Below are positions 23,376 to 41,143 of a stretch of 64,000 nt of DNA, piece by piece. The DNA is from Armatimonadota bacterium. GTDB lineage: Bacteria > Armatimonadota > UBA5829 > DSUL01. The position numbers and the translations under genes were made by a program. Below the pieces are notes generated by a model. That model was not told the DNA's origin and made no database searches. It saw nothing but the letters and a program-made list of their open reading frames with translations. The DNA lies in NCBI GenBank assembly GCA_039811685.1, contig JBDHZC010000004.1, positions 192,001 through 256,000 on the forward strand. Reading direction: 5' to 3'. Position 1 is the stretch's first letter, and every line of letters starts with the position of its first letter.

Positions 23376-24353
23376 TTATCCAGCTTTCAACCCTTGAGCG
23401 ATTGCCAGCTCCGTCAGCACCTCCTGTTCTCTTGCTGACAGCGGTTTCGGAACTGTAATCATCACTCTCGCCATCAGATCGCCGCTGCCTTCCCCCTTCA
23501 GCTTTGGCATTCCCTTGCCTTGCAGCCGCAAAGTCTGCCCGCTCTGTACGCCTGCTGGAACCTTCATGGTGACGCGCCCGGTCATCGTTGGCACAGCAAT
23601 CTCTCCCCCCAGCGCTGCCAGCAGATAGGGCACCTGGACATCTTCAGTGAGGTTGTCCCCATCACGTTTGAATCGCACGTGTGGTTTGACGACTACGTTC
23701 AGGATGACGTCTGCCTTCTGCCCGTTGGCGCCAGGAGCTTCGCCAGCCAGCCTGATCTTGGAGCCCGTATTCACGCCTCGCGGTATCTTGACTGTCAGCC
23801 GCCGTCCACCTACGCTAATCTGACGCTCTGAGCCTGAGTACGCTTCTTCCAGGGACACCTGCACTTCCGCCTGAACGCTTTGTGGCTGAGGCGCAAAGTT
23901 TGCCCCGAAGCCCCCAAAGCCGCCCTGGTCTACGTGGAACCGTCCGCCTCGTCCTCGGGTTGCGCCACCGAACAAGCCTTCAAAGATGCTCCCGATATCA
24001 GGGCCGCCTGCGCCGCTTCCAAATCCGACATCGTCAAAATTGCCGTCGAAGTGGAACCCACCGCCACCCGGGCCGTACGCTTCAAAATCCGTTGCTGTGG
24101 CGCCTGCCTTCTGCGCTTGCTGCCACTGTTCCCACTGTGGGCCAAAGCGGTCGTACGCCTTGCGATTCTCCGGATCTTTGAGGACCTCATAGGCTTCGCT
24201 CACGAGCTTGAACTGCTCTTCCGAAGCTTTATCGCCGGGGTTGACATCCGGGTGGTGTTTGCGGGCGAGCTTGCGGTAAGCCGACTTGATCTCTTTTTCT
24301 GTCGCGCTTTTAGGAACGCCAAGAATTTTGTAATAGTCCTTGCTTGCCGCCAT
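23376..24353 (-). CDS. class B J-domain protein (DnaJ/CbpA-like, no zinc finger)
   Basis: KDYY.ILGV; HPD motif; G/F region; C-terminal domains; lacks CxxCxGxG repeats. Confidence 0.92.
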   Translation of the reverse strand: MAASKDYYKILGVPKSATEKEIKSAYRKLARKHHPDVNPGDKASEEQFKLVSEAYEVLKDPENRKAYDRFGPQWEQWQQAQKAGATATDFEAYGPGGGGFHFDGNFDDVGFGSGAGGPDIGSIFEGLFGGATRGRGGRFHVDQGGFGGFGANFAPQPQSVQAEVQVSLEEAYSGSERQISVGGRRLTVKIPRGVNTGSKIRLAGEAPGANGQKADVILNVVVKPHVRFKRDGDNLTEDVQVPYLLAALGGEIAVPTMTGRVTMKVPAGVQSGQTLRLQGKGMPKLKGEGSGDLMARVMITVPKPLSAREQEVLTELAIAQGLKAG

Positions 24354-24453
24354 CGTATGCCTCAAACTACTGCCGAACCAGGATTGGAACGGTAGAGGAA
24401 GCGGGTGTTGCCCCGCCTCCCTTTTACAATCACCACCTCATCGCCGGCGATCC

Positions 24454-24888
24454 TCAACCGACTTCGATGTCAATCTTCTTCGGCCTGACGGCCTGTGATT
24501 TGGGGATGGTCACCTGCAGCAGCCCATCCCGATAGACCGCTTTCACATTCTGGACATCCACCGGAATACCGATAGAGAATGACCGTGAAAACGGACCATA
24601 CTGACGCTCAACGCGTACCCATTGCCCGTCATCCGGTTGCGGAAGGCTGCGTTCACCAGAGACGTTCAGCGTATCTGCCGTGACTTCTATGTTGATGTCT
24701 TCCATCTTTACGCCAGGCACTTCGCAGACAACAACGATATCGTTGTCGCTCTCACGCACATCGCACTCCGGCGTCCAACTTGAACTCCGCGCCTCTTCCG
24801 CTCCGCCACGCCGCGCGCCGTGTCGCCACGGCTCAAACAGCTCCGCAATTTCCCTGAACGGATCTCGTCCCCTTACATCCATTCGCAT
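24454..24888 (-). CDS. small heat-shock protein (Hsp20/alpha-crystallin)
   Basis: WTPECDV.E, EVPGV, ERQYG.FSRSF and AVYRDGLLQVTIPK motifs. Confidence 0.95.
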   Translation of the reverse strand: MRMDVRGRDPFREIAELFEPWRHGARRGGAEEARSSSWTPECDVRESDNDIVVVCEVPGVKMEDINIEVTADTLNVSGERSLPQPDDGQWVRVERQYGPFSRSFSIGIPVDVQNVKAVYRDGLLQVTIPKSQAVRPKKIDIEVG

Positions 24889-25000
24889 CTGCTTTCACCT
24901 CTCAAGTAGTCTTTGTGAATGTTTTTGTGGCTTCTACCCTGCTCCTCTGGGGAGGAGATCAGCCTGGCGCAGTTGCAACTGCGCCAGGTGTCGTGTGTGT

Positions 25001-26827
25001 TTACTCCTCTTTGTACTCGGCCTCGATCACGTCTTCGCCGCCGTTCGACGCGGCGGCTGCCCCTGCCGGTTCCTGTTCCGGAGACTCCTGTTCCGCGCTC
25101 TGCCGGTAGAGAATCTCGCTAAGCTGATAAGCTGCCTGCTGCAGCTCTTCTGTGGCCGACGCGATATCCTGCTGGTTATCGCCCTTCAGCGCTTCCTGCA
25201 GCTTGTCGCGCGCGCTCTCCACGCGGGCGCGGACGTCTTCCGGCGCTTTGTCACCAAGGTCTGTCAGCGTCTTGTTGGTATTGTAGATAAGGCTGTCAGC
25301 GCGGTTCTTGATCTCCGCAACCTCTTTGGCCTTGCGGTCATCATCAGCGTGCGACTCCGCCTCGCGCACCATCTTTTCGATATCGCCCTTATCCAGATTA
25401 CTGGAGCCGGTAATCGTGATACTTTGCTCGCGTCCGGAAGCCCGATCCTTCGCGCTCGCATGCAGAATGCCGTTGGCGTCAATGTCAAAGGTCACTTCGA
25501 TCTGCGGGATACCACGAGGCGCGGGTGGAATTCCAGACAGGTGGAACATTCCGAGGCTCTTGTTGTCGCGGGACATCTCGCGCTCACCCTGAAGCACGTG
25601 CACTGTAACTTCGGTCTGCCCGTCAGCGGCCGTCGTGAATGTTTCAGATTTGCGCGTAGGGATCGTTGTGTTTCTCGGAATGAGCTTGGTGCACACGCCG
25701 CCCAGAGTCTCGATGCCCAGTGAAAGCGGTGTCACGTCCAGGAGCACAACATCCTTCACTTCACCCGCCAGAACGCCAGCTTGGATAGCAGCGCCTACTG
25801 CCACGACCTCATCCGGATTAACGCCCCTGTGCGGGTCCTTGCCAATGAGCTTCTTGACCAGCTCCTGCACCTGTGGCATTCGGGTTGAGCCGCCAACCAG
25901 AATCACTTCATCAATGTCTTTGTCCTCGAGTTTGGCGTCTTCAATAGCCTGCTTGTACGGCTTCACGCAGCGGTCCAGCAGGTCCGCAGTCAGCTCCTCA
26001 AACTTTGCTCGGGTGAGCGTGACATCCAGGTGCTTTGGGCCGTTAGCGTCGGCCGTAATGAAGGGCAGGTTGATGTTCGTCTGGACCACGTTAGACAGCT
26101 CAACCTTCGCTTTCTCAGCGCCTTCGCGAAGCCTCTGAAGCGCCTGCTTGTCTGAGCGCAGATCAATTCCAGATTCTTTCTTGAACTCATCAGCCACATA
26201 CTCGACAATGCGCTCATCCCAGTCATCGCCACCCAGATGCGTATCGCCATGCGTGGACTTGACTTCGAACACGCCTTCGCCCACCTCCAGGATGGACACG
26301 TCAAACGTTCCCCCTCCAAGGTCCCAAACCAGAATGGTTTCGTTTTCCTTTTTGTCCAACCCGTACGCCAGGGCGGCAGCAGTTGGCTCGTTGATAATCC
26401 TCAGTACCTTGAGCCCTGCGATCTCGCCTGCGTTCTTGGTCGCTGTGCGCTGGGCGTCGTTGAAGTAAGCCGGTACAGTGATCACCGCGCTCTCCACTTT
26501 GTCCCCAAGGTAGGCTTCCGCGTCTGTCTTCAGCTTCTGAAGAATCATGCTGGATATCTCTTCAGGAGAATAGTTCTTGCCGTCGATCGAAACGCGCTTG
26601 TCCGTTCCCATATCGCGTTTGATCGAGATCACGGTGCGCTCGGGGTTGACGATAGCCTGACGCTTTGCCTGCGTCCCTACCAGCCGTTCGCCATTCTTGG
26701 TGAATCCAACAACGCTCGCCGTAATTCTGGAGCCTTCGGCGTTTGGGATGACGGTGGGCTCGCCGCCCTCCATAACCGCGACGACCGAGTTAGTGGTGCC
26801 AAGATCGATACCAACTGTTTTTGCCAA
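25001..26827 (-). CDS. dnaK: molecular chaperone DnaK
   Basis: [41 protein letters not shown] and IEAEYKEE tail; GGAGG SD before TTG at 26827. Confidence 0.99.
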
Positions 26828-26943
26828 TGCAATCACCTCCGCCCGGAACTCGTCCGGTCTTTTTCACTGTGTAATCCGTGTGGAGCAGGCTCTGTTCTGA
26901 ACCGCTCTCCAGTGGTTTTTACCCACATCTTTTTATCGCAGGG

Positions 26944-28564: not shown

Positions 28565-30802
28565 ATGGCCGTCCAAGAGCACAGCGTCCATACCGCCCCT
28601 GAGGGCGAAGTTTGCGATCTGAGTATCGGTGGAATGCACTGCGCGTCGTGTGTGGCTAACGTCGAGCGCGCTTTGAAAAAAGTCCCCGGCGTCGAGTCTG
28701 CTTCTGTCAATTTTGCGACGCAGGAAGCCCGCGTTCACACCTCTTCGCATGTCAGCCCTGACGTCCTCGCGCAGGCGGTGCACAAGGCTGGCTATGAGGC
28801 GGAAGTCATCGTGCCGGAAAGCGCTGGGCACGACCATTCCCATATGCGCGATGAGTACCCGGACACCGTCCGCAGCTTCAGAACCGCCGCCGTTCTGACC
28901 GTTCCAGTTTTCATCCTTGGGATGTTCTTTATGAACTGGTATCCGGGGCACTGGATATCGCTTGTACTGACTACGCCCGTCGTTTTCTGGTCCGGGCGCG
29001 GGTTCTATACGGGTGCGTGGGCGGCGCTGCGCCACAAGTCTTCGGACATGAACACGCTGATTGCGATGGGCACGTTCGCGGCGTACGCCTACAGTCTGGT
29101 TGCGCTGGTGGCGCCCGGTCTGCTGCACTCGATGGGTGGTCATCCCCATGTGTACTTTGAGACAGCCGCCGTCATCACGACTCTGATTCTCTTTGGCCGG
29201 ATGCTGGAAGCCCGGGCGCGCGGGGAGGCCTCCACCGCTATCCGCAGTCTGATGGAACTCCAGGCAAGAACCGCGCGGGTTGTTCGCGGTGGGCAGGAAG
29301 TGGATATTCCTGTGGAGCAGGTCGTCACGGGTGACCTGGTCATTGTCCGCCCGGGGGAGAAGGTGCCGGTTGACGGTGTTATCACAGAAGGCGCTTCTTC
29401 GCTTGATGAGTCTCTCATGACCGGAGAGTCCGTGCCTGTTGAGCGCGGAGTAGGCGATGAGGTCATTGGAGGCACGCTAAACGCCGCGGGCTCTTTCACG
29501 TGCAAAGTCACGCGCGTTGGGCGGGAGACCGCCCTGCAGCAGATTGTGGAGCTGGTGCGCCAGGCTCAGAGTGAGAAAGCGCCCATCCAACGCCTGGCGG
29601 ACCTTATCAGCGCCTGGTTTGTCCCCACCGTCATCGCTATTGCCGTTGTTACTTTTCTCGTCTGGTACAACGTGCGTCCGGTAGACACTCGCTTGACGGA
29701 TGCATTGGTCTCCTTCGTCGCTGTTCTCATTATCGCCTGTCCCTGCGCTCTTGGGCTTGCCACTCCGGCGGCCATTATGGTCAGCAGCGGCGTTGGCGCG
29801 AAGCTTGGCATTCTCATCAAAGGCGGAGAAATCCTCGAGCGGGCAGGGCGCATCCAGACCGTAATACTGGACAAAACTGGCACTATAACGTCCGGAACAC
29901 CGCAGGTGACAGATGTCATTGGATTTGGAATAGAGCGCCTGGACGCGCTGCGGCTGGCCGCTGCTGTTGAGCGCCGCTCCGAACATCCCATCGGCGAGGC
30001 CATCGTACGCGCGGCTGAGTCAGAGGGCGCCGTACTTCCGGACCCTTCCGATTTTCAGTCTCTAGCGGGCTTTGGTGTTTCTGCAGCAGTAGAAGGCCAA
30101 TCTGTTCAGGTCGGTAGTGTGCGGATGAACGCCACGCAAGGGGACCTGCCGGACAGCGTTCAGACGCAGGCCAGAACCCTGGCTGCTGATGGCAAGACTC
30201 CTGTGGTCCTCTGGGTGGAAGGCCGGCCCCTGGCTCTGATCGCCGTTGCGGACACCGTCAAACCGGGCTCTGCTGACGCTGTGTGCCACCTGAAAGCCCT
30301 TGGGGCAAAGGTAGTAATGCTCACAGGTGATGACCGCCGCACAGCGCAGGCTGTGGCGGACCAGGTTGGCATCCAGCACGTTCTTGCGGAAGTTCCGCCG
30401 GATGGCAAGGCTACTCAGGTGAAAGCCGAACAGGCCACTGGCGCAGTGGTCGCGATGGTGGGGGACGGAGTGAACGATGCTCCTGCGCTGGCGCAGGCGG
30501 ACGTAGGTATCGCTATTGGCGCCGGAGCGGACGTAGCGCTGGAAGCCTCCGACATCACTCTGATGCGTGGAGACCTTTCAGACGTTGTGAACGCTGTGCG
30601 CCTCTCACGAGCTACACTCTCCACTATCAAGCAAAATCTCTTCTTCGCCTTTATCTACAACGCCATTGGGATTCCCGTAGCCGCCGGCGTTCTCTACCCG
30701 GTTACCGGCTGGCTCCTCAATCCGATGATCGCCTCCCTTGCCATGGCCATGAGCTCCGTCTCCGTCGTCACCAACAGCCTGCGCCTGCGCGGGTTCAGGT
30801 AG
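28565..30802 (+). CDS. copA: copper-translocating P1B-type ATPase
   Basis: HMA motif [43 protein letters not shown]/MxxSS Cu(I) ligands. Confidence 0.96.
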
Positions 30803-30805
30803 GCA

Positions 30806-30878
30806 ACCCTCACACGTCGTACACCTTCAGCACCTCGTCGCCGTAGTGGTTGATGACTTTGACGGCGATTTTGCCGGA
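30806..30878 (-). repeat. 73-bp direct repeat copy 1: detached 3' end of the methyltransferase gene
   Basis: 70/73 identical to 34539-34611; encodes SGKIAVKVINHYGDEVLKVYDV*. Confidence 0.97.
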
Positions 30879-30908
30879 CCGCGATGCTGGCGAAATCCTT
30901 GGCGTTCC

Positions 30909-32102
30909 TTACAGGATATCTATGTCGTCAGTTGTCAATGACTGGCCAGTGGGTTTGACTTCCTCTCCTTTCTGCCTGACGCTGACACTGCGCCCGATCT
31001 CCGGTTCTAGCCATTCAAGCTGCGGCAGCGGAGTTCCACTTGTACTCATATACACCCAGTCCTGTGCGCGTGTAGTGCCAACAAAAAGGAGATCCTCTGG
31101 CGGTGTGGGCACGTTCTCAAAGCGGTGCCACGAGAGGTAAGGCATGAAAACACTGTTGAATGTGAGTCCTTTTGCCGAGTAGTAGGTCATCACTTTTGGA
31201 GCGTCTGATGTGTGGTCCGCCTCTTTATTAAACTCAGCTGGGATTCCCGCTTCCTGCAGACCCTTGGTGTTTCCGATCGCTAGACGGTTTGTGGGTACAA
31301 GAATTGCAACTCGCTCTCCCATGTTCACCCGCTCTCGAACAAGTCGGATCAGATTCTCCGACTCGTCGTGGTAGTCTGCTGCTTTGTACAGGACCACCGT
31401 TTCGCTCTGCTTGGTTGGGGTGTATTTCTGTGCCAGGAACTTCCCTCGCTCAGCCTCGTCGAGTAGGAAACACGCTGCCGCATTATGAACGTGGGGGCAG
31501 CACCGGAAGGCATTGATAAGGGCTATATTCTCCTGCTTTAGCCCCAGGGCTTCCAGCACCTGCCGCTCGTCAGTACCCTCTTCGTAGAGTCGCTGCTTCT
31601 GATCCATCGCTACCATAAGATGTCGACTGATCAAGGTGAGCGTGCTCAAGGATTCGGCATCAATATCCTGTGCTTCGTCCACGAGAACAAACTCATACAG
31701 TGGGCGAGGTAATCGCCGGGCTAGTAGATGGCTTCTCACTGCAGCTCTCATCTCCGTGAACGCAGGACATCTATCATTTCTGTTCCATGGAAGCTGCCGG
31801 CCAATGTGGTCTCTGTAGTAATCGCAACACCAGCTGTCCCAGGTGCAAACACTATCTTCCGGGAGATCAATCAAAGTGGAGTCGGCCTGAATGTACTCTT
31901 TCAGCGCATTTGTATAGACAAACAACTTGAAACTGTCGGGAGGAAGACCGTACTTTGTTCGCAAATAGTCCGCGCGATGCACAAGAACCATGGACTTGCC
32001 AGAACCAGGAGGCCCGGTGATAGCTCGGCTTCCGTCCATAGGTTGCTCCACGGCCCGCTGCTGTTCGGGTGTCAGGCGTGCAAAAGGCACGAGCCAAGCC
32101 AT
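30909..32102 (-). CDS. compact UvrD-like superfamily 1 helicase/ATPase
   Basis: LTPEQQ (Q motif), GPPGSGKS (I), LVDEAQD (II), MDQKQRLY (III), FRC (IV), MTYYSAKGLTF (V) and LFVGTTRA (VI); 397 aa. Confidence 0.88.
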   Translation of the reverse strand: MAWLVPFARLTPEQQRAVEQPMDGSRAITGPPGSGKSMVLVHRADYLRTKYGLPPDSFKLFVYTNALKEYIQADSTLIDLPEDSVCTWDSWCCDYYRDHIGRQLPWNRNDRCPAFTEMRAAVRSHLLARRLPRPLYEFVLVDEAQDIDAESLSTLTLISRHLMVAMDQKQRLYEEGTDERQVLEALGLKQENIALINAFRCCPHVHNAAACFLLDEAERGKFLAQKYTPTKQSETVVLYKAADYHDESENLIRLVRERVNMGERVAILVPTNRLAIGNTKGLQEAGIPAEFNKEADHTSDAPKVMTYYSAKGLTFNSVFMPYLSWHRFENVPTPPEDLLFVGTTRAQDWVYMSTSGTPLPQLEWLEPEIGRSVSVRQKGEEVKPTGQSLTTDDIDIL

Positions 32103-32105
32103 TTG

Positions 32106-34499
32106 CTACTCCTTCCCGCTGGGACCGATTGGGAGCACCCCTCCTCCGTCTTCTCCATTGCCACCCATCTTTCGGCGACGGCTTTCTTCGTCACAAGCCG
32201 AAAGGAGTTTGTTGTCTCCTACCATACGCGCTGCAAGGCGCAGCCAGCCCACCTCCCAATCCTCCAGAGCTTCAACAGGTCCGAACGTCTCAAGAGCTTG
32301 CGACAGCGCTGCATCTCGCCCGTCCTTGTCGCCTTGCCCGCTTAGGATTTTAGCGTAGAGAACGAGGTAGCCTGCTTCCCGTTCGCGTTCCAAAGCTTGC
32401 TCAACCAACAAACGCGCTTTTTGAAGTTCACCGCGATGCTCGAGAGAATCGGCGAGGTTAAATAGGGGCCCACCCCAGTTTGTGCCAGCTTGGGCCGCGG
32501 CCGTGTAGAAAGTCTCCTCCCGTTTATGATCGCCTAACCGCCCTGCGTAGATTCCGGCCAAGTTCAGCAGGCCCGGTTGCGGAGTACCGGCGATTGTATT
32601 TGCTGTCTTTAGATGACTGAGAGCCCGCTCGAATTGCCTTACCTCTGCACAGAGTACCGCGAGCTCCCGGAACGCGGCCACGCGGGCCCATCCCGCGTAA
32701 TCTCCTGTTCTAATCTTTTCCTCGATCTCAATAATCTTACCGCGAGTCTCGTTTGGGTCGACCACGTGGGTCAGAGGCCGTTCAACTGTGAGGCCGAATG
32801 GACTCCCCGGCGCTCCAGCGCGAAATGCCCGTATTGCCAGCATCTGGTTGTCGTCCATATGATACTGAACTACTAGGGATTCCCCCTTGGTCACCGGTCC
32901 CGAGATCCTCCAAATCGCAGATTGCAGCCGACGCTGGGCACGTCCGTCGTCAGCCGTCAGATCGATCCGAAGATCCAATGATTCAGCTGTCTCCGGTATG
33001 CTAAGGGTGTCTATCTGGCCCCAGCCGTCCGCAGGATATGGCACAGCTTCGCCCTTGGGAATCAGGGTGAGAATCCCATCTCTTGTGCGGAGGCCGATGC
33101 TATCGCTCAGAACTGGCTGAATAAGACCCGCGCCAAAAAGGCGCAGTGCCAATGAGTGCAAGGCTGCCCCCTCGGCGACGGCAGTCTGTATCTGTCCGTG
33201 GTCGTCAAAAGTCCGCACTTGTGCTTGAGGCCCCAGGTGTTGTTCCAGCGCCTCCACAACCTGTGGAATCAGGCTGCTGCCGCCGACGAGTAGCACTGTA
33301 TCCACGTCGGTTGGTCGCAAATTAGAGCGGGCTAGCGCATCATCCAGCGGCGCAAAGATGGAGCATGTGACGCCGTAATCACCCTCAATAGGCACTGTGA
33401 TGTCTTCGTCGAGAAACGGAGCGAGGATTGCCTCGAACTGTTCTAGCGTGAGAGAGGGGCTGGGTAGCAGAAGCTGCCTGCCATTTAACACACACTGATG
33501 GCTTGATGGAAGTACTGCAGTGTGGCGATCGGTATCTGTCGGATCGAAACGCTTGAAATCCTTGAGCCTTCGTACGCTGTTGCACAGCGATATCTTCAGT
33601 GACTCAGCCACGCCGAGAAGGGCTGGCTCCAGGAAGTACTTTCGCTCCTTGAACTCTATTTCGCTGGACGATATCCCATTTGCTTCGAGCAATGCAGGAA
33701 TCAGGACTTCATGTACAATGGAGTTATCAATGTCACCACCACCAAGCCGGTGGTAACGAGACACCGCTAGCGGAGCCACGCTTATCGGACGCTCCGGTGA
33801 CTGGCGCGTGAGCTGAAGTACCGCTATGTCGCAGGTGCCGCCGCCGAAGTCGAACACCACAAGGCGCGACGAGCCGCAGCGCTGCAGGGGATCCTCGTCT
33901 GGTAGGCCGTTGAGAAAAGTCAGAAACGCTCCAATCGGCTCATCAAGCAGATCCCCCGGCATTATCTGTATGCCTGCTTCGCGTGCCGCCTCCACAGTGT
34001 CCGAGCGCTGGGGCACCTGGAACGAGGCAGGTACCGTAACGACGGCCCTCTGAATGGCCGTGTCGTCGCGCAGCGTTTCCACCAGACACCCTAAAACTTT
34101 CGCTGCGATGTCGCGTGCGCATCGAAAGCCTTCCGGCGCCTGGTTGTAAGTGCGCGTAATGCCCATTTCATTCTTGCATTCGTAGAACAGGTCCCGGTAA
34201 GGTAAGAGGTTATACTCGGTGCTCTCAGCTCTTAGCCGCTTGGCGCCTTCCCCGACAAGTACCCGGTTTGGCAGAACAGCCACCACCGAAGGGAACAGCG
34301 GACTCGTAGTATTGCCGGCATTTAGTGTCTCTTGGGGAATATCGAGGCAACGCACCTGGACGCTCTCTGGCTGGTTTGGATCCCAGCTTGCCTCGGCGAC
34401 AGTTGAATTCGTTGTACCGAGATCAATGCCAATTCCCGTTACGGCTTCATCGGGTACGTCGTTCTGTCGTGCTGCCATAAGTTCACTGAAGTAGCTCAT
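32106..34499 (-). CDS. divergent Hsp70-family ATPase with C-terminal TPR-like repeats
   Basis: [48 protein letters not shown] and AVAEGAA motifs; C-terminal helical repeats (e.g. PLFNLADSLEHRGELQKARLLVEQAL); SD AAAGGA. Confidence 0.88.
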   Translation of the reverse strand: MSYFSELMAARQNDVPDEAVTGIGIDLGTTNSTVAEASWDPNQPESVQVRCLDIPQETLNAGNTTSPLFPSVVAVLPNRVLVGEGAKRLRAESTEYNLLPYRDLFYECKNEMGITRTYNQAPEGFRCARDIAAKVLGCLVETLRDDTAIQRAVVTVPASFQVPQRSDTVEAAREAGIQIMPGDLLDEPIGAFLTFLNGLPDEDPLQRCGSSRLVVFDFGGGTCDIAVLQLTRQSPERPISVAPLAVSRYHRLGGGDIDNSIVHEVLIPALLEANGISSSEIEFKERKYFLEPALLGVAESLKISLCNSVRRLKDFKRFDPTDTDRHTAVLPSSHQCVLNGRQLLLPSPSLTLEQFEAILAPFLDEDITVPIEGDYGVTCSIFAPLDDALARSNLRPTDVDTVLLVGGSSLIPQVVEALEQHLGPQAQVRTFDDHGQIQTAVAEGAALHSLALRLFGAGLIQPVLSDSIGLRTRDGILTLIPKGEAVPYPADGWGQIDTLSIPETAESLDLRIDLTADDGRAQRRLQSAIWRISGPVTKGESLVVQYHMDDNQMLAIRAFRAGAPGSPFGLTVERPLTHVVDPNETRGKIIEIEEKIRTGDYAGWARVAAFRELAVLCAEVRQFERALSHLKTANTIAGTPQPGLLNLAGIYAGRLGDHKREETFYTAAAQAGTNWGGPLFNLADSLEHRGELQKARLLVEQALEREREAGYLVLYAKILSGQGDKDGRDAALSQALETFGPVEALEDWEVGWLRLAARMVGDNKLLSACDEESRRRKMGGNGEDGGGVLPIGPSGKE

Positions 34500-34538
34500 G
34501 CGATTCCTTTCTTGCCAAGTTTGTGATGAGTTCCTTCC

Positions 34539-34611
34539 ACCCTCACACGTCGTACACCTTCAGCACCTCATCACCATAGTGGTTGATGACTTTGACGGCG
34601 ATTTTGCCGGA
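34539..34611 (-). repeat. 73-bp direct repeat copy 2 (current 3' end of mod)
   Basis: Matches 30806-30878 with three synonymous differences. Confidence 0.97.
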
Positions 34612-37338
34612 TTCGGGACGGGCGAAGGGGCGGCTTGTGGTGAGGTAGAGATCGGCCCACGCAGCTTCGTCCACCTCCGCTCGGAGCGCTCTCTTCAGTT
34701 TGTCGTATGGCTCGCCTGCGCCTGTGAAATAGGCGTGGCGCACGAAGAAGCTCTCTTCGTTGTAGCTCGTGTCTATGAACCAGGCGGCGATCTCGTCGGT
34801 TGCGTCTGACCGGAGCTCGCCAGTCGTCGGATCGTAGATGTCCACACCGCGGATAGTCACCTGCACCTGGTCGCCAGACAAGTGGCTCACCACGATATCC
34901 GGCTCTCCGAAGATCATGAAGAGGTTTCCGGCGCCGGTTTTCTTCAGGAGTTCGTCGCCCATCGTGAGGTCGGCGTTGATCCTTGTGGGAAGGACGACGA
35001 GGTTTCCGTAGCGCTTCGTCTCCTCGCCGACGTGTGGATCGAAGGCGAGGCCGGCGATGAGGAGCGTGTCGAATCCAGCGCCCTTCACAGCCTCCTTGGC
35101 GGCTTCACGTACGAGGTCCGGCGTGACGGTCCCAAACTCCGGGCCCACACAGACGGCCACCCGCTTTGTGGTCTCCCCTTCCGTATATTCACCGGCCGCG
35201 TGCAACCACTCGCCAGGGTAGATGTCCAGACGGTCGAACTTCAGCCGCTCACCCTTGACGGTGTTCTGGACACCGGCCTTCTTCATGTTTTCGATGATGG
35301 TGACGCCAAACTCGCCCGCTCCGCGGATAGAGAACTGGTAGCCGTCCTCCGTCGGCTTTTCAAGCTCTTTTTTGCTCTGCACGGATATCTGGCGGTGAGG
35401 AGACAGGCTTTCGACGGTGAAAGGGCCTGTAACGCGGATGCGCTTGTTGTCTTCGTAGGGCTTGTCGTAGAGAAACTCGGCGTCGGCCCGGCGGGCGATG
35501 CTGGCGTCAATCTCCTGCTGGCGCTCCCGGCGCAGGTCCCACCATTTCTTCAGCAGGGCCTCCGCCTCACTGCCCACTGGCTTCTTCCCGCTGTCCCCTG
35601 TCCGCGGCACTTCCCACTCTTCCCAGCTCTTTCCGAAGGCCTGGTTGATTTTTGCTCGCAAGTCCTCCAGCGCGGGCTGCCACTTTTCGTGGATGGTGTC
35701 TATCTCTTCGTTGTTGGCGATGGATTTCAGCGTGATGTGCGGCACGCGCTGGTAAACAAAGCCGCGCTTGATGTCGTGGCCAGTGGTCAGTGATTGGTGG
35801 TCAGTGGGCAGTGAGGCGTGGTCGGCTTCCAGCCCTCTGATTTCGGACTCTTTCTTGCGCCCCTCGGGGGAATCGGCCAGCAGGTAGTAAGGAAACTTCG
35901 CGCACATAAGGCGTGTGCGGGCAAGGGTCAGCGCTACGCGAGAGGTGTCGCAGGTGATCCAGCGGCGTCCCCACTGCTCCGCTACGTACGCCGTCGTGCC
36001 GCTGCCGCAGGTGGGGTCCAGGACGAGGTCGCCGGGGTCGGTGGTCATGAGGAGGCAACGCTCGATCACACGGCGCGCGGTCTGGACCACATACTGCTTG
36101 TCTTCGCTCCAGCCTGCTATGACGGTGTCAGTCCAGAGAGCGTTCAGTGGGACAGCACCGAAATCGTCGAGGAACCTAATGTACCCTGCCGAACTGCGCC
36201 GCGCGGAAACGCGACCGGCAGTGATCAGACGCGCCATACCTTCAGGGTTCGACTTGTAGCTGTTCGCATATGTGCGCCCGTTCACTACCACCTCGAATAC
36301 AGGGTTGCCTTGTGTCGCCAAATTGTCGTGGCGGAACAGCTTGCTGCCGGCCGGCAGCTGTTGTATCGCAGCTAAATCATCTGTCGGGAGTGTGCGGGTA
36401 CTTCCGTCAGGCAGCATTGCATAGCGGTATTCTGCTGTGCCGCCACCGCCCAACTCCTTGTTTAGGTAAAGCTGATGGTACTTCACAGCCTCTCGGTTCT
36501 TCGTGTACCACAGCAGATAGTCTGCAACCCCGGTCAGCAAGCGCGACTGGAAACCGCTGGTTTTCGCAAAGACTATCTCGCCGCAGGAATTCTCACTCCC
36601 AAACACCTCGTCCAGAAGGCACCGCACCAGGTGCACGTTCTCATCACCAATCTGCACGAACACGCTGCCGGATTCAGTGAGAAGCTCGCGGGCGACGACC
36701 AGCCTGTCGCGGAGATACGCGAGGTACGAGTGGATGCCGTACTCCCACGTGTCCCGGAACGCCCGGACCTGCTCCGGCTGGCGCGTCAGGTCAGAGGCTG
36801 CCCCGTCCTTCACATCGCGCTTGCGCGTGGACACCTGCCAGTTGCTGCCGAACTTGATGCCGTAGGGCGGGTCTATGTAGATCATCTGGACCTGCCCCTT
36901 CAGCCCCTCCTTCTCCGCCAGCGAGTTCATCACCAGCAGGCTGTCGCCCAGGATCATCCTGTTGGACCAGTGGTTGGCGTGCTCGTAGAACTGAATCTGT
37001 TCCTCGAACGGCAGGCCGTTGAAGGCATCGCCGAACAGATCGAGCTGGGCGGGGGGCGCTGGAGACGCTTGGGCGCTCGCCTGCCGCCGGAAGTCCTCGA
37101 TAATCGCCTGCGGGTGAATCTTCTCCTGAATGTAGATGGGGACAGACAGCACGGACAGGTCCTCAGCGTCCTGCTGGTCCTTGCCCTTCCACACAAGCTG
37201 GGGGTCCAGCGACGGATCGCGCGGATACAGCACCGCCTTCGGCTTCTGCTCGTCCTCGCTTACAAACCCTCGAAGCTCCTCCGTCGGTATGTTCGGCCGG
37301 GTGTCGGAATGGGTGATGTTCTCAATCTTCTTGTTCAT
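34543..37338 (-). CDS. mod: type III-like R-M DNA methyltransferase (beta-class amino-MTase, Mod)
   Basis: YIDPPYG (motif IV) precedes VLDPTCGSGTT (motif I) with a variable TRD between; downstream of res; start MNKKIE. Confidence 0.92.
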   Translation of the reverse strand: MNKKIENITHSDTRPNIPTEELRGFVSEDEQKPKAVLYPRDPSLDPQLVWKGKDQQDAEDLSVLSVPIYIQEKIHPQAIIEDFRRQASAQASPAPPAQLDLFGDAFNGLPFEEQIQFYEHANHWSNRMILGDSLLVMNSLAEKEGLKGQVQMIYIDPPYGIKFGSNWQVSTRKRDVKDGAASDLTRQPEQVRAFRDTWEYGIHSYLAYLRDRLVVARELLTESGSVFVQIGDENVHLVRCLLDEVFGSENSCGEIVFAKTSGFQSRLLTGVADYLLWYTKNREAVKYHQLYLNKELGGGGTAEYRYAMLPDGSTRTLPTDDLAAIQQLPAGSKLFRHDNLATQGNPVFEVVVNGRTYANSYKSNPEGMARLITAGRVSARRSSAGYIRFLDDFGAVPLNALWTDTVIAGWSEDKQYVVQTARRVIERCLLMTTDPGDLVLDPTCGSGTTAYVAEQWGRRWITCDTSRVALTLARTRLMCAKFPYYLLADSPEGRKKESEIRGLEADHASLPTDHQSLTTGHDIKRGFVYQRVPHITLKSIANNEEIDTIHEKWQPALEDLRAKINQAFGKSWEEWEVPRTGDSGKKPVGSEAEALLKKWWDLRRERQQEIDASIARRADAEFLYDKPYEDNKRIRVTGPFTVESLSPHRQISVQSKKELEKPTEDGYQFSIRGAGEFGVTIIENMKKAGVQNTVKGERLKFDRLDIYPGEWLHAAGEYTEGETTKRVAVCVGPEFGTVTPDLVREAAKEAVKGAGFDTLLIAGLAFDPHVGEETKRYGNLVVLPTRINADLTMGDELLKKTGAGNLFMIFGEPDIVVSHLSGDQVQVTIRGVDIYDPTTGELRSDATDEIAAWFIDTSYNEESFFVRHAYFTGAGEPYDKLKRALRAEVDEAAWADLYLTTSRPFARPESGKIAVKVINHYGDEVLKVYDV
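35563..35600. repeat. heptamer array A inside mod
   Basis: ctcactg-cccactg-gcttctt-cccgctg-tcccctg; 35563-35579 is the exact reverse complement of 35802-35818. Confidence 0.8.
35781..35818. repeat. heptamer array B inside mod (inverted relative to A)
   Basis: cagtggt-cagtgat-tggtggt-cagtggg-cagtgag. Confidence 0.85.
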
Positions 37339-37927
37339 GGGTCCTCTGGGCCTCATGGGACGCACGCTGAATGTTACGTTGCCGCAGCCGCGCCCGCGTC
37401 ATGCGCTCGCGCAGGCCACCTTCCTCAAGGAAGGACTTCTCCAGGCTTCTCAGCAGGCGGTCCAGCAGATAGTTCGTCTGGTGAATCAGGCAGATGATGG
37501 TGTTTGCCGCGACCTCCGGAGGCGCGTGGGCCACACGAGTCTCATAAGTCTTATAGGACACATGCTCCCCGTACGCCAGCTTCCGGATTACCTGCGCCTG
37601 CGGGTGGTTTTTGTCCCACGCCGGCAGTTTGCGCGTGCGCAGAAAGTCGCGGTAGTCCTCCAGAAGCTCCTCCAGACTGGCGCGCGCGACGTTCATCAGC
37701 TTGATTTCCGTCTCTTTGGAGGTCGCCGAAGCCATGCTCCCTTCCACGATGTTTTGCTTGCCAGACCTTGCCGCCTGAATCATCTGATCGTGTGTCCGGC
37801 TGCGCCTGTCAACAAAGCGCTGACAAAAGGCGGCCGTCGCGTCATAGACGATCCTGGCTTTCTGGTAGGCCGCAAGGTCCTGGTAGCCTCCGTGCTTCGG
37901 GATGAAGCCTGCTTCAGACATCGGCAT
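37322..37927 (-). CDS. four-helix-bundle protein with suffix domain (23S rRNA IVP/Avd-like superfamily)
   Basis: HGGY..L.AYQK, DQMIQAARSGKQNIVEG, ARASLEELL.DY.DFLR and suffix AANTIICLIHQTNYLLDR...F.EEGGLRERM motifs. Confidence 0.88.
   Translation of the reverse strand: MPMSEAGFIPKHGGYQDLAAYQKARIVYDATAAFCQRFVDRRSRTHDQMIQAARSGKQNIVEGSMASATSKETEIKLMNVARASLEELLEDYRDFLRTRKLPAWDKNHPQAQVIRKLAYGEHVSYKTYETRVAHAPPEVAANTIICLIHQTNYLLDRLLRSLEKSFLEEGGLRERMTRARLRQRNIQRASHEAQRTHEQED
37336..37364. repeat. 29-bp direct repeat at the four-helix/mod junction
   Basis: catgggtcctctgggcctcatgggacgca; 26/29 identical to 37925-37953. Confidence 0.9.
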
Positions 37928-40919
37928 GGGTCTTGTGGGTCTCATGGGACGCATGATGGAGCCAGGCCCGTATCGTCTGCTTCGCATCCCACGGATCGCT
38001 TATCTCCAGGAACGCCCAGCGGCCGTAGCCGCCGTGGTTGTTGATGGCTGGAACCCACAGTGTCCGGGCCGTAGCGGTCTTCGCCGTCTTGTCCTTTCTC
38101 TTTTCACCGGAGCACTCGAGGATCAGGTTCAGCGTCTGTCCGTCCCCCTGCCGGACGTGGCAGATGAAGTCCGGGATGTAGCTGCGCTCCTCCCCGGAAA
38201 GCGAATAGGGAATTGTGAAGCCGAGGTTGTGGTTCTTGACGTAGTGTGCGACTTCGACCATCTCCTCCAGCGCCTGCGCAAGTTTTTGCTCCCACGACTC
38301 CGTGTCGGCCACGACGTGCGAGATGTGGCACTTTTCCGGATCGGTCGCATACACCGGGCGCGTTGTGTCGAAGTCCACGTAGCGCGTGGAGCCGACGGTG
38401 TCATACGGTCGCAGGATCGGTATCAGCCGCTTTTCGCCCTCCTGGGACGCCACAATCGCCCTGTAGATACGGTCGGCGGCGTCGTGCTGAAACTGGGTCA
38501 GGAGCATAAGCTGCGGGAAGCAGTTGTCCTTGCAGGTGAGGCATTCCTCAAGCCAGCGGCGGGCGATTTCGACCAGATCCGGGAAGTACCAGTGTTTGAT
38601 ATTACCCTCTTCGTCCCGGAAGTACGCCTCGAGCGTCCGTTTGGCCAGGATAAAGGCCACCTCTTGCATTCGGTGTTTGCGAAGGTCATCCAGGTTGTGA
38701 ATAACGGTTTCACCGACAAAGGCGCCCATCTTCGTGCGAGTGGTAACATCTTCGGTCGTGAGGGCGAAGCGTGAATCCTCTGTGAAATCTGCGGTCAGCC
38801 GCTCCGCGGGAAACTCATAGCGGTATCCCGAAACACGCGGGAAGGTGATCTCGCATGCAATCCGGTCTTCCAGCGCCCGGACGCGCGTGGGGATCGGTCC
38901 GGGTTTCGGGTCGGTCATCGAACCGGCCGCCGGGATAAAGGAAAACGGAACGCCGTACACCTCTGCGTATTCTGCGGGGAACAGCCCGTTGTCATCCGGC
39001 TGATGGCTCATTCGGCGCAGCCCGCGTCCAACCACCTGCTCACAGAGGAGCTGTGTCCCAAATGCGCGTACCCCGAGGATATGGGTCACGGTGTTCGCAT
39101 CCCAGCCTTCGGTGAGCATTGAGACTGAGACAACGCAGCGCACATGCTCCCCCAGCTTTCCCCGTTTACCGACCGTGTTCATAACCTCGCGCAGCAGGTC
39201 CTCATCGGTCAACTTGCTGGCGTCGCGTCCAGGGAAGCGCGCTACATACTCCGCCTTGAACTCCTCGATCTCGGCGGCGGCTATCTTCTTGAACTCATCG
39301 CTCATCGCCTCGCCCGATTCGAGCTGCTCGCTGTCAATCAGAATCGTGTTCGGACGGTGCAGCCACTGGCCGTGCTCGACATTGCTGAAAAGAGGGAGCG
39401 CCCCGGGCACATTGACCGTCTGGCCATCTTCGAGCGGTTTCTCCCATCCGGCGATGAAGTCGAAGACGAGCTTCGAAACGTTCGTGTTGTTGCAGACGAC
39501 AATGAACACCGGCGGAACGCCGGAATTACCGGCGTCATCTGTGCTCTGCTCCCACTGCCGGTAGTATTTCTCGTAGTTGCCGTAAAGGCTGCGAATGGCG
39601 CCTTCCAGCTCTGCTGGCAGCTTTGGTTCAACGGGAGCAGCCTCCGTGCCGCGGCCTTTTTTCGGGAGATCGTCCCGGATGCGCGTCCACAGATCGCGGT
39701 ACGTCGGCTGGTCGCCCGTCATGGAATCGTCCGCTACGGGCACGCGCGGGACTTTCACGATGCCGGACTCGATGGCGTCCACGAGAGAGAAGTCCGAGAC
39801 AACCCACGGGAACAACATCCCTTCCGGATAGCCTGACCCGCGAAGGAAGAACGGTGTTGCGGACAGATCGTAGATGGCCTTTACACCTATCTTGTTCTTG
39901 ACCGCCTCAATGCCTGATATCCAGACGCGGGCTGCTTCGTCGCGCTTCTGCGCCTCTTTGCGCTCATCGCCGGTCAGCTTTTCTTCGGGGGCTTCCGGCT
40001 TGCGCCTGTAGCAGTGGTGCGCTTCGTCGTTGATGACGATGATGTTCTTCTTCGAGCCAAATTGCCGGCACACTCTGCGCACCATTTCATCGGGCGTCTC
40101 CGTGAACGTCGAGCTTGACGAACCTCCACGCGACTGCAGCACCTCTTTGGTGAGCTTCCCGGCCGAGATCTTTTCCCGGTGGAGGAATGCGTGGTAGTTC
40201 GTGATGAGGATATTGGCCTGACCGAGATCTTCGCGCATGTCGGCGGGCACAACATCCATAGTCCGGTAGTAGTTGTCCCCGTCGTTTGGGAGCAACACGC
40301 GCAGGCGGTCTTTGATGGTGATTCCCGGCGTGATAATCAGAAAAGTATCGGAAAAGCGCGTGTCCTGCCGGTTTGCCAGCTTGTTGAGGGTGTGCCAGGC
40401 GATAAGCATGGCCATAACGACCGTCTTGCCAGTTCCCGTGGCCATCTTGAGCGCAAGGCGGTCCAAACCGGGATTGCTGGCGTTGTTGAAGTCTTTCAGC
40501 TTTGTGGCCAGGGACGCATCGCCCATTTTGCCCGCGCACTCGGTTAGGTAGATCAGAGTCTCCAGCGCTTCGATCTGGCAGAAGTAGAGCCGCCGCTCGC
40601 GATCTTCAGCGGTCCAGTGCGCAAGAAGCTGCCGGGTAACGGGGGTAACGCCTGGTCTGCCCTCCCGCCGCCACAATCCCACGCGCTCGCGCACCAGATT
40701 GATGAAGGTATTCTCTTCGATTCGCTCCTGCGTCCATTCCGTAGCCAGCACAAGCTGTTTGCTTTTCTTCTTGGCTTTTGGGACGGGAATGAAGTAGGAG
40801 CTGCGCCTGCGGCTTTCGACGATGTCGCTCGTGATGCCATCTTCATCGAAGCGGAAGTGGCGGCGGGGCTCCTCAAAAGGAGAGTTGATAACGGGGTTTT
40901 CGATTACGACCTGAGCCAT
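37914..40919 (-). CDS. res: type III-like restriction endonuclease (Res; SF2 helicase + PD-(D/E)xK nuclease)
   Basis: MATGTGKT, DEAHH, LSATP, SMLTEGWD and EQVVGRGLRR motifs; C-terminal YIPDF...LILECSG nuclease motif. Confidence 0.93.
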   Translation of the reverse strand: MAQVVIENPVINSPFEEPRRHFRFDEDGITSDIVESRRRSSYFIPVPKAKKKSKQLVLATEWTQERIEENTFINLVRERVGLWRREGRPGVTPVTRQLLAHWTAEDRERRLYFCQIEALETLIYLTECAGKMGDASLATKLKDFNNASNPGLDRLALKMATGTGKTVVMAMLIAWHTLNKLANRQDTRFSDTFLIITPGITIKDRLRVLLPNDGDNYYRTMDVVPADMREDLGQANILITNYHAFLHREKISAGKLTKEVLQSRGGSSSSTFTETPDEMVRRVCRQFGSKKNIIVINDEAHHCYRRKPEAPEEKLTGDERKEAQKRDEAARVWISGIEAVKNKIGVKAIYDLSATPFFLRGSGYPEGMLFPWVVSDFSLVDAIESGIVKVPRVPVADDSMTGDQPTYRDLWTRIRDDLPKKGRGTEAAPVEPKLPAELEGAIRSLYGNYEKYYRQWEQSTDDAGNSGVPPVFIVVCNNTNVSKLVFDFIAGWEKPLEDGQTVNVPGALPLFSNVEHGQWLHRPNTILIDSEQLESGEAMSDEFKKIAAAEIEEFKAEYVARFPGRDASKLTDEDLLREVMNTVGKRGKLGEHVRCVVSVSMLTEGWDANTVTHILGVRAFGTQLLCEQVVGRGLRRMSHQPDDNGLFPAEYAEVYGVPFSFIPAAGSMTDPKPGPIPTRVRALEDRIACEITFPRVSGYRYEFPAERLTADFTEDSRFALTTEDVTTRTKMGAFVGETVIHNLDDLRKHRMQEVAFILAKRTLEAYFRDEEGNIKHWYFPDLVEIARRWLEECLTCKDNCFPQLMLLTQFQHDAADRIYRAIVASQEGEKRLIPILRPYDTVGSTRYVDFDTTRPVYATDPEKCHISHVVADTESWEQKLAQALEEMVEVAHYVKNHNLGFTIPYSLSGEERSYIPDFICHVRQGDGQTLNLILECSGEKRKDKTAKTATARTLWVPAINNHGGYGRWAFLEISDPWDAKQTIRAWLHHASHETHKTHADV
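37925..37953. repeat. 29-bp direct repeat at the res/four-helix junction
   Basis: catgggtcttgtgggtctcatgggacgca; built from 9-bp units. Confidence 0.9.
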
Positions 40920-41143
40920 GGTATCTCGTGTCAGCCGTGTAGTCCGCGCACGCTGATCAGCTTAATATAGCGAATCACCGGCCTGCGGTCAATCAGAAGC
41001 TGAAGGAGAGAGCGCAATACAGCCCAATTTCGTCCCCTGGAACCTGCCCCCGACTTTTGTTCGTTGGGCTAAAATGGAGTGGTTCGCACAGCCGCTCCCA
41101 GTGCGTCAGCATCCGCTCGGTCAACAGTAGGGGTTTTGTGTCT

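Follow-up and report, generated by a model that had tools for sequence, protein, structure and literature searches.

A conserved gene pair coding for an Hsp70-TPR protein and a minimal UvrD-like helicase, added to a type III restriction-modification operon in an Armatimonadota bacterium, is a candidate anti-mobile-element cassette

The window analysed here, 64,000 nucleotides (nt) of contig JBDHZC010000004.1 (positions 192,001 to 256,000) of an Armatimonadota bacterium, carries on its minus strand a block of genes in the order res, a small open reading frame (ORF), mod, an Hsp70-like gene and a helicase gene. The last two form a cassette of 3.6 kb, coding for an Hsp70-like protein that ends in a tetratricopeptide-repeat (TPR) array and for a minimal UvrD-like superfamily 1 (SF1) helicase, and comparison across genomes points to a conserved, patchily distributed and horizontally mobile two-gene unit. 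This cassette is real, conserved and unnamed; the combination of a nucleoside triphosphatase (NTPase) sensor with a helicase effector is of a kind known in defence islands, the Hsp70 core being the unusual part. Judged from its sequence and surroundings, it is probably part of the anti-mobile-element repertoire, and the more specific reading favoured here, to which we give roughly an even chance of being correct, is that of a defence cassette acquired by a type III res-mod operon at its 3' end and combining an ATP-driven sensor with a DNA-motor effector. The two genes and the parts of their products are the following:

32106..34499, minus strand: Hsp70-TPR gene (P0002, 797 amino acids (aa)), from the ORF and its translation, matches to Pfam HSP70 and TPR_2, and an AlphaFold2 (AF2) model
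33135..34442, minus strand: Hsp70 nucleotide-binding domain (NBD), residues 20-455, from the AF2 model, VIA alignment and invariant catalytic motifs
32781..33122, minus strand: DnaK-type beta-sandwich, resembling the beta part of the substrate-binding domain (SBD-beta-like), residues 460-573, from the strands of the model and alignment to BiP and DnaK
32169..32750, minus strand: TPR array, residues 584-777, in place of the Hsp70 lid, with 11 paired helices in the model
32109..32168, minus strand: C-terminal tail of the Hsp70-TPR protein, disordered and bearing a conserved G-x-L-P motif, from a predicted local distance difference test score (pLDDT) below 50 and the tails of homologues
30909..32102, minus strand: minimal UvrD-like SF1A helicase gene (P0001, 397 aa), from Pfam, AF2, Foldseek and profile matches
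30912..30971, minus strand: disordered linker and acidic-hydrophobic C-terminal tip of the helicase (...TTDDIDIL), with pLDDT below 50 at residues 386-397

The two genes are tightly coupled: a 3-nt gap (CAA) separates the Hsp70 stop (...AAG GAG TAG) from the helicase ATG, and the Shine-Dalgarno sequence of the helicase, AAGGAG, sits within the last Hsp70 codons. The Hsp70 ATG itself lies 43 nt downstream of the mod stop (34543-34545), in the same direction. A sequence-only reading of this DNA had described both the coupling and the position directly behind mod, and coordinates and sequence confirm them; it had further expected that, if the pair were a genuine module, the two genes should occur together elsewhere, and this they do. 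A scan of one genome per species recovered at least 470 stretches encoding Hsp70-TPR proteins, from which 80 loci were retained, and pairing was counted at the 60 loci where the Hsp70-TPR match is complete and 1300 nt or more of DNA lie downstream of it. A helicase homologue stands directly downstream of the Hsp70-TPR gene in 55 of these 60, and 52 downstream helicases are near full length, starting 3-126 nt past the end of the Hsp70 match. The identities among the Hsp70-TPR proteins co-vary with those among the helicases (Mantel r 0.675 over 48 pairs, with 0 of 999 permutations as high). Moreover, in two natural fusions, P0164 (876 aa) and P0167 (842 aa), the helicase is attached directly to an Hsp70 ATPase domain, which argues for a direct functional link between the Hsp70-like protein and the helicase. 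Both fusions are without the beta-sandwich, the TPR array and the acidic tip, an anatomy that fits a role of the tip and of the TPR and substrate-binding parts as a tether in the two-gene form. A search for longer fused forms of the helicase found none at E<=1e-20 in a word-indexed collection, which is weak evidence, as P0164 and P0167 exist.

Both families are well populated. The 120 best Hsp70-TPR proteins listed are 774-854 aa long and show 43-49% identity over at least 93% of the query. The record titles of the 80 retained loci name Acidobacteriota, Desulfobacterota, Gammaproteobacteria, Verrucomicrobiota, Planctomycetota, Clostridia, Chloroflexota, Ignavibacteria, Poribacteria and others. 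The helicases form a distinct family of their own, with 151 representatives at E<=1e-30, mostly of about 400 aa. Closer to home the distribution is sparse: among 41 genomes of the window's family and class, full-length Hsp70-TPR homologues occur in three, namely the window's own genome, G001 (43%) and G031 (46%), the remaining Hsp70 matches all being at the level of DnaK.

In its fold P0002 belongs to the Hsp70 superfamily, having an actin-like NBD with the catalytic residues and an SBD-beta sandwich. It matches Pfam HSP70 at 2e-26 (92.8 bits against a cut-off of 20.6), with TPR_2 matched too, and its AF2 model has a pLDDT of 83.5. In this model the NBD aligns with the ATPase domain of Ssb1 over 351 residues (VIA Z 33.4, root-mean-square deviation 3.1), residues 16-569, i.e., the NBD and the beta-sandwich, align with ATP-state BiP (VIA Z 31.6), and the first two domains map onto full-length DnaK, BiP and Hsp110, including SBD-beta, by both Foldseek and VIA-align. 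The phosphate-1 motif IDLGTTNS, K87, E187-P188, D217-FGGGTCD-224 and G406-G407-S408 are invariant in 18 homologues; via DnaK numbering we take these to be the Hsp70 catalytic sites. The sequence-only reading had credited the protein with all Hsp70 ATPase motifs, and rightly so; its further claims that P0002 ends in TPR-like helices and lacks the acidic tail also stand, but not the supposed loss of the DnaK linker, since the AF2 model has a hydrophobic linker, GLIQPV, between the ATPase domain and a full beta-sandwich. As modelled, P0002 departs from DnaK only in the helical lid and the acidic tail, which are swapped for TPR helices. The TPR array matches a designed consensus TPR (phmmer, 7.5e-5) and aligns with the TPRs of OGT and APC/C (VIA Z 18-19); within it, N646 and N681 are invariant in the 18 homologues. 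The beta-sandwich and TPR array, with a mean pairwise identity of 37-38% as against 52% for the ATPase domain, are the faster-diverging parts, as would suit a sensing surface. In the tail beyond the array, P790 is invariant and G787 and L789 nearly so in the homologue alignment, and the resulting G-x-L-P motif, present in most of 50 tails, could serve as a pseudo-substrate or docking motif.

The helicase P0001 has the motifs Q, I, Ia and II-VI and the two RecA-like domains of the UvrD/Rep/PcrA group of SF1A. It matches Pfam UvrD-helicase at 8.9e-11 and UvrD_C at 6.3e-9, and its AF2 model (pLDDT 91.9) is without any extra domain and finds PcrA and UvrD as best Foldseek matches (E 4e-17). Profile matches to solved structures are likewise led by PcrA (1e-32) and UvrD (4e-30), with GajB weaker at 6e-14; among solved proteins PcrA, UvrD, Rep and HelD are its nearest relatives, GajB being more remote and UPF1 ranking lower. 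Across 38 homologues Q14, GxxGxGK36, D142-E-x-Q-D146, D167/Q170, R200, K311-G-L-x-x-D316 and R345-A346 are invariant or nearly so. Judged by its length and its model, P0001 has strongly reduced 1B/2B accessory domains or none, and Pfam, PADLOC and NCBIfam scans found no nuclease domain in P0001, so that the earlier picture of a complete motif set within 397 aa and without a nuclease has held up. The last ~20 residues are disordered in the AF2 model and end in ...DDIDIL. This ending is a family trait: 45 of 50 full-length homologues have a hydrophobic terminal residue and at least two D/E among the last eight, with the consensus [DE]-D-D-L-x-D-[LF]-[LF]. We take the tip to resemble the EEVD-type ligands of TPR co-chaperones and the DDDIPF tip of the bacterial single-stranded DNA-binding protein (SSB). 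This conserved tip, the SBD-beta domain of P0002 and the natural fusions all go beyond what the sequence-only reading had noticed.

The genes surrounding the pair were compared with PADLOC-DB at E<=1e-30; at each of 63 loci the comparison took in the closest two ORFs of 150 aa or more on either side. Model matches were obtained for 43 of the 198 neighbour ORFs, in 27 loci, and comprise R-M (restriction-modification) types II, IIG, III and IV, HKD-Snf2/DrmD-like helicases, Hma, Dnd, DarTG, Hachiman, SngC and Cas6, together with several PDC candidates. As a control, one of 42 ORFs of the window outside the island matched PADLOC, and this one, UvrA via its ABC ATPase, is a false positive. The enrichment near defence genes that had been anticipated is therefore seen in these counts. 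UvrA, identified by Pfam UvrA_inter and UvrA_DNA-bind, matches the MADS models mad3 (2e-105) and mad8 (1e-40), which means that single-model PADLOC matches of ABC-type ATPases are not defence evidence.

Restriction linkage was counted by combining PADLOC matches with Pfam-typed neighbour clusters. Genes of the R-M or modification type lie upstream of the pair, on the same strand, in 25 of the 80 loci; of the 49 loci whose upstream DNA extends to 3 kb or more, 22 have such genes. The notion of a module riding on an R-M locus thus survives as a real tendency but not as a rule, the window's own mod/res family recurring beside the cassette in L016 only. Conversely, mod homologues occur in six of the 41 related genomes, and the cassette is in none of these except the window genome. 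The partners and the placement vary: in L069 (4750-15182) the pair stands on one strand between an HKD-Snf2 helicase-nuclease gene and a type IIG/ISP-like methylase gene, i.e., within a restriction operon and not at its end; in G001 it lies 43 nt behind an HKD-Snf2/IIG-methylase system; and in G031 (locus L094; G031:C65, 1259-9899) genes for an McrB-like (AAA_5) protein and McrC follow it after 3 nt on the same strand. Separately, the cassette of L094 is preceded by DprA-like (DNA_processg_A) and Mrr_N-domain genes, likewise on that strand, DprA-like genes are also found upstream of the pair in L028 and L042, and a DUF3800 gene (cluster c8) is beside the cassette in L010, L065 and L026, loci that have the HKD-Snf2/IIG-methylase system.

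That the pair matches no named system, as the sequence-only reading had suspected, agrees with the database comparisons: none of the 5027 models of PADLOC-DB v2 matches the Hsp70-TPR protein, and the helicase gives only weak, partial matches to GajB and NERD+UvrD models; a cluster look-up likewise yielded no names. Full-text literature searches turned up no measurement of phage protection by the pair and found the combination of Hsp70-TPR and UvrD-like proteins undescribed, in coverage that stopped short of the supplementary tables of the CoCoNuT and PADLOC/DefenseFinder papers. P0001 resembles GajB of the Gabija system as a compact UvrD-like NTPase in a defence setting without a nuclease of its own, and it weakly matches GajB models and structures. 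An identity with GajB was rejected, the best PADLOC GajB model scoring 1.9e-14 (51 bits) over residues 128-293 only, far below PcrA/UvrD. The helicase partner here is, moreover, the Hsp70-TPR protein and not GajA: no model of the GajA/OLD nuclease matched any of four scanned proteins, and the helicase is flanked by the Hsp70-TPR gene on one side and by a mod remnant and then the P-type ATPase gene on the other. HelD was also rejected as an identity of P0001 (NCBIfam HelD_BACSU, 21.7 bits against a cut-off of 419), as were DnaK for P0002 (NCBIfam TIGR02350, 95.5 bits against 822.55; NF001413, 95.2 against 648) and HscA, for which the score was far below the curated equivalog cut-off. P0002 shares with DnaK the NBD and SBD-beta fold and the catalytic residues, but its lid is replaced by TPRs, its cassette has no J-protein or GrpE, proteins of its type are found in only three of 41 related genomes, and a true dnaK-hsp20-dnaJ set is present at 23376-26836.

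The closest analogue is the CnuD/CnuH pair of the type III-B and III-C CoCoNuT systems, yet the cassette lacks each testable feature that defines them. In the parts of the description consulted, CnuD combines an Hsp70-like NBD/SBD with HEAT-like repeats, coiled coils and degenerate Walker A-like motifs, CnuH is an SF1 UPF1-like helicase with a large helical insertion and an OB fold, and the system, predicted rather than tested, is defined by an NxD McrB GTPase and McrC (Bell et al. eLife 2024, PMC11090510). The likeness, on that partial description, consists of an Hsp70-fold NBD/SBD with alpha-helical repeats beside an SF1 helicase in restriction-rich surroundings, to which may be added the cassette relative of G031 directly upstream of McrBC. 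In contrast, the helicase here is a 397-aa UvrD-type core and not a UPF1-like protein with the insertion and OB fold that those parts of the paper ascribe to CnuH; P0002 has invariant motifs and TPR repeats, being set apart by the description of CnuD as consulted, not by its sequence; and neither an McrB-like (NxD) GTPase nor McrC/DUF2357 is present in the cassette operon (30.9-41 kb), McrB/McrC being found in L094 only. More generally, STAND NTPases and their Hsp70/Hsp90-like substitutes have been treated, in the portion consulted, as NTPase-plus-repeat switches of conflict systems (bioRxiv 10.64898/2026.10.19.760177). P0002 is like these, so far as they are described there, in having a central NTPase followed by a repeat array, thought to sense an invader and signal to an effector, but differs in that the cassette has no fused effector domain and the effector would be the separately encoded helicase. 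The portions consulted of the same preprint, of PMC7159879 and of PMC8195603 describe other Hsp70-like arrangements and not a pair of Hsp70-TPR and UvrD-like proteins.

The operon to which the cassette belongs has the Mod protein and the Res helicase-nuclease of a type III R-M system within one operon; the Hsp70-helicase cassette is not a defining part of such a system, and the sequence of the locus suggests that it was secondarily added here. The relevant features are these:

34543..37365, minus strand: type III mod methyltransferase (P0003), likely start ATG at 37338, from PADLOC MTase_III (1015 bits) and Pfam N6_N4_Mtase (4e-29)
37322..37987, minus strand: small ORF P0274 between res and mod, likely ATG at 37921, with Pfam 23S_rRNA_IVP below cut-off
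37914..40919, minus strand: type III-like res endonuclease (P0004), from NCBIfam BPTD_3080 (1226 bits against a cut-off of 800) and Pfam ResIII
30806..30878, minus strand: remnant of the mod 3' end (last 21 codons, stop and 4 nt), from direct repeat D1
34539..34611, minus strand: functional mod 3' end, second copy of the 73-nt repeat, from direct repeat D1

The pair is indeed bracketed by a duplicated mod 3' end, as had been noticed from the sequence: the two copies of direct repeat D1 (30806-30878 and 34539-34611) are 73 nt long and 96% identical. Their three mismatches are all synonymous in the mod frame (tac/tat, ggc/ggt, gac/gat), and such synonymous-only differences point to two diverged mod alleles. 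The remnant separates the helicase stop from the convergent P-type ATPase gene and is only 3 nt away from the stop of the latter, which suggests that the ancestral operon ended there and that 3,733 bp were added later. The arrangement would fit the integration, by crossover in short homology, of DNA carrying a mod 3' end and the cassette. A second duplication is nested in the same operon, the 3' end of P0274 duplicating that of res (repeat D4, 37336-37369 and 37925-37958, 34 nt, 85%), and its likeness to the mod-end copy suggests a common route of gene insertion into the operon. P0274, whose likely start (37921) overlaps the res stop, weakly resembles the 23S-rRNA-IVS four-helix-bundle protein (Pfam 30.7 bits, below the cut-off of 33.8). 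At 40 other cassette loci, direct repeats of at least 14 exact nt bracketing the pair were found in none, which makes the duplication special to the window locus.

The block as a whole is flanked by the P-type metal ATPase gene (copA; 28565-30802, convergent) and by uvrA (41057-44107, plus strand). The canonical dnaK that had been noted nearby is confirmed (25001-26836; Pfam HSP70 826 bits) and forms a chaperone set on the minus strand with dnaJ (23376-24365) and hsp20 (24454-24888). The relative G001 likewise has dnaK near its P-type ATPase gene. In a synteny check, copA is near dnaK in G001 and G004 and uvrA is elsewhere, and a clean empty site is not definable. Three public DNA runs, from different studies, have contigs that span the cassette with high identity and break at the 73-nt repeats, and none of the listed public-run contigs has a direct copA-mod junction; as the contigs break at the repeats and none joins copA to mod, a cassette-free allele is not demonstrated. 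One contig, from run X4, is 3763 nt long and corresponds to window positions 30806-34568, exactly repeat to repeat (3733+30), with A at 30837, 30840 and 30843, the alleles of the mod-side copy; it may reflect identical repeats in that population, a cycle in the assembly graph or a circular form. Contigs from RNA libraries (X20) touch 32277-32583 and 30750-30907 and are not evidence of transcription.

As regards function, the sequence features suggest a sensor or regulator role for the Hsp70-like protein and a DNA-directed effector role for the helicase. The sequence-only reading had proposed such a sensor and effector pair, backing up the R-M system, and both parts of that proposal stay conjectural. 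On the favoured defence reading, the former would be a catalytically competent ATP switch, with the beta-sandwich and TPR array as its binding or sensing surface. In the resting state it would hold the helicase, most likely via the flexible tail and acidic-hydrophobic tip of the latter, the tip docking on the TPR array or the beta-sandwich, until the Hsp70 cycle is shifted by an invader trigger (a phage protein or a DNA-protein intermediate) and the helicase is thereby released or loaded. As a minimal UvrD-type single-stranded DNA motor without a nuclease, the helicase might then strip proteins from, or unwind, the replication and recombination intermediates of the invader; alternatively, its output might be the consumption of nucleotides, as has been reported for GajB. 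The cassette would work beside whichever restriction system it joins, without depending on one particular enzyme. A narrower version, to which we accord a slim chance, is a guard by tail competition, in which the TPR array would clamp the helicase tip and so keep the helicase inactive, until phage proteins whose tails or surfaces are similarly acidic displace the tip and the Hsp70 ATPase cycle frees the helicase onto invader DNA; the displacers might be phage SSBs, or anti-restriction proteins that mimic DNA and target the adjoining R-M enzymes.

Several observations weigh against the defence reading. The case for it is drawn from genomic context only: 36 of the 63 loci have no PADLOC match at E<=1e-30 among their four nearest ORFs, the PADLOC models include generic ATPases, helicases and methylases, the control is a small one from one window of one genome, and close kin among the loci (L073, L075 and L076; L001, L005 and L006) make the locus counts overstate independence. 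No third gene is conserved beside the pair among the 80 loci, and the cassette itself has no nuclease, toxin or membrane effector. The Hsp70-TPR gene stands without a helicase in five of the 60 loci (L037, L061, L062, L071, L074) and three others have a partial helicase match only (L010, L019, L055). No copies of the Hsp70-TPR protein were found at E<=1e-40 among 72,556 plasmids and 50,697 phages; a PHROGs search of the cassette proteins returned generic helicase and Hsp70/actin-like families only. The docking of the tail on the TPR array is conjectural. A complex prediction for Hsp70-TPR residues 456-797 with the whole helicase, both given as alignments, scored 0.00, below the mark, in a run without controls, and weighs on neither side of the question of binding.

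These points leave room for other explanations, of which one, in our estimate unlikely, is that the pair is a housekeeping accessory of R-M systems, clearing or recycling restriction motors that have stalled on DNA, or easing self-restriction of the host chromosome. Type I enzymes offer a parallel in their ClpXP-dependent restriction alleviation, and in 22 of 49 loci a modification-based system does immediately precede the pair on its own strand; the pair lies inside such an operon in L069 and 43 nt behind mod here, it has no toxic effector, and the closest solved relatives of its helicase, UvrD, PcrA and HelD, are protein-displacing motors. Yet the partner systems are unrelated in type (II, IIG, III, HKD-Snf2, Hma, Dnd), which makes a specific protein-protein tie to a restriction enzyme unlikely, no upstream R-M or modification gene is seen in 27 of the 49 loci where upstream DNA sufficed, the neighbours also include DarTG, Hachiman, type IV enzymes and CRISPR genes, and five related genomes have mod/res homologues without the cassette.

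We see only a small chance that the pair has no defence role at all and instead serves a mobile element or genome maintenance, for instance by assisting replication or recombination, or as a selfish cassette that recombines into conserved gene ends and finds merely permissive landing sites in defence islands. DnaK-type chaperones do act on the helicase complexes of phage replication (lambda O/P-DnaB), the distribution is patchy among the related genomes (three of 41), the 36 loci without a nearby defence match accord with this, and the 73-nt duplication would fit single-crossover integration of a circular DNA with a mod 3' end. It is countered by the roughly ninefold enrichment of defence models among the neighbours over the small control, by the lack of any conserved recombinase, replication initiator or transfer gene beside the pair, by the 0 of 40 other loci with bracketing repeats and by the failure to find plasmid or phage copies. 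Highly improbable, in our view, is a reduced relative of CoCoNuT whose Hsp70-like protein would recognise RNA or ribosome-associated targets, and in which the pair would detect aberrant or viral RNA on behalf of a restriction partner, McrBC-like or other. The architecture does parallel CnuD and CnuH as described in the parts of PMC11090510 consulted, and in G031 the pair is followed by McrB-like and McrC genes at 3 nt; but McrBC is absent from the window and adjacent in one examined locus only, the helicase is UvrD-like and not UPF1-like, no HEPN or other RNase was found, and the ATPase motifs of P0002 are intact whereas those of CnuD are, on the same partial description, degenerate.

To our knowledge, a working bacterial immune system based on Hsp70 has yet to be demonstrated. 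The one similar proposal that we found in the literature searched, the CnuD of CoCoNuT, is in the parts of its description consulted itself a prediction. Hsp70, on the other hand, is among the best understood protein machines, and here it appears in a small two-gene cassette, found in metagenome-assembled genomes labelled with many phyla, in which both partners have seemingly intact catalytic motifs. Given this small size and the mutational handles at hand, i.e., the Hsp70 ATPase residues, the Walker A lysine, the tip and the TPR asparagines, the cassette is directly testable in a laboratory host. If it proves protective, a chaperone cycle gating a DNA motor would represent a new sensor-effector logic, and the locus would help explain how accessory modules attach to restriction operons; the two nested 3'-end duplications, of mod and of res, illustrate how add-on genes may be inserted without loss of operon coupling. 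Were the tail-competition guard to be true, it would be the first immune sensor built on the Hsp70 chaperone cycle and a general second line behind restriction.

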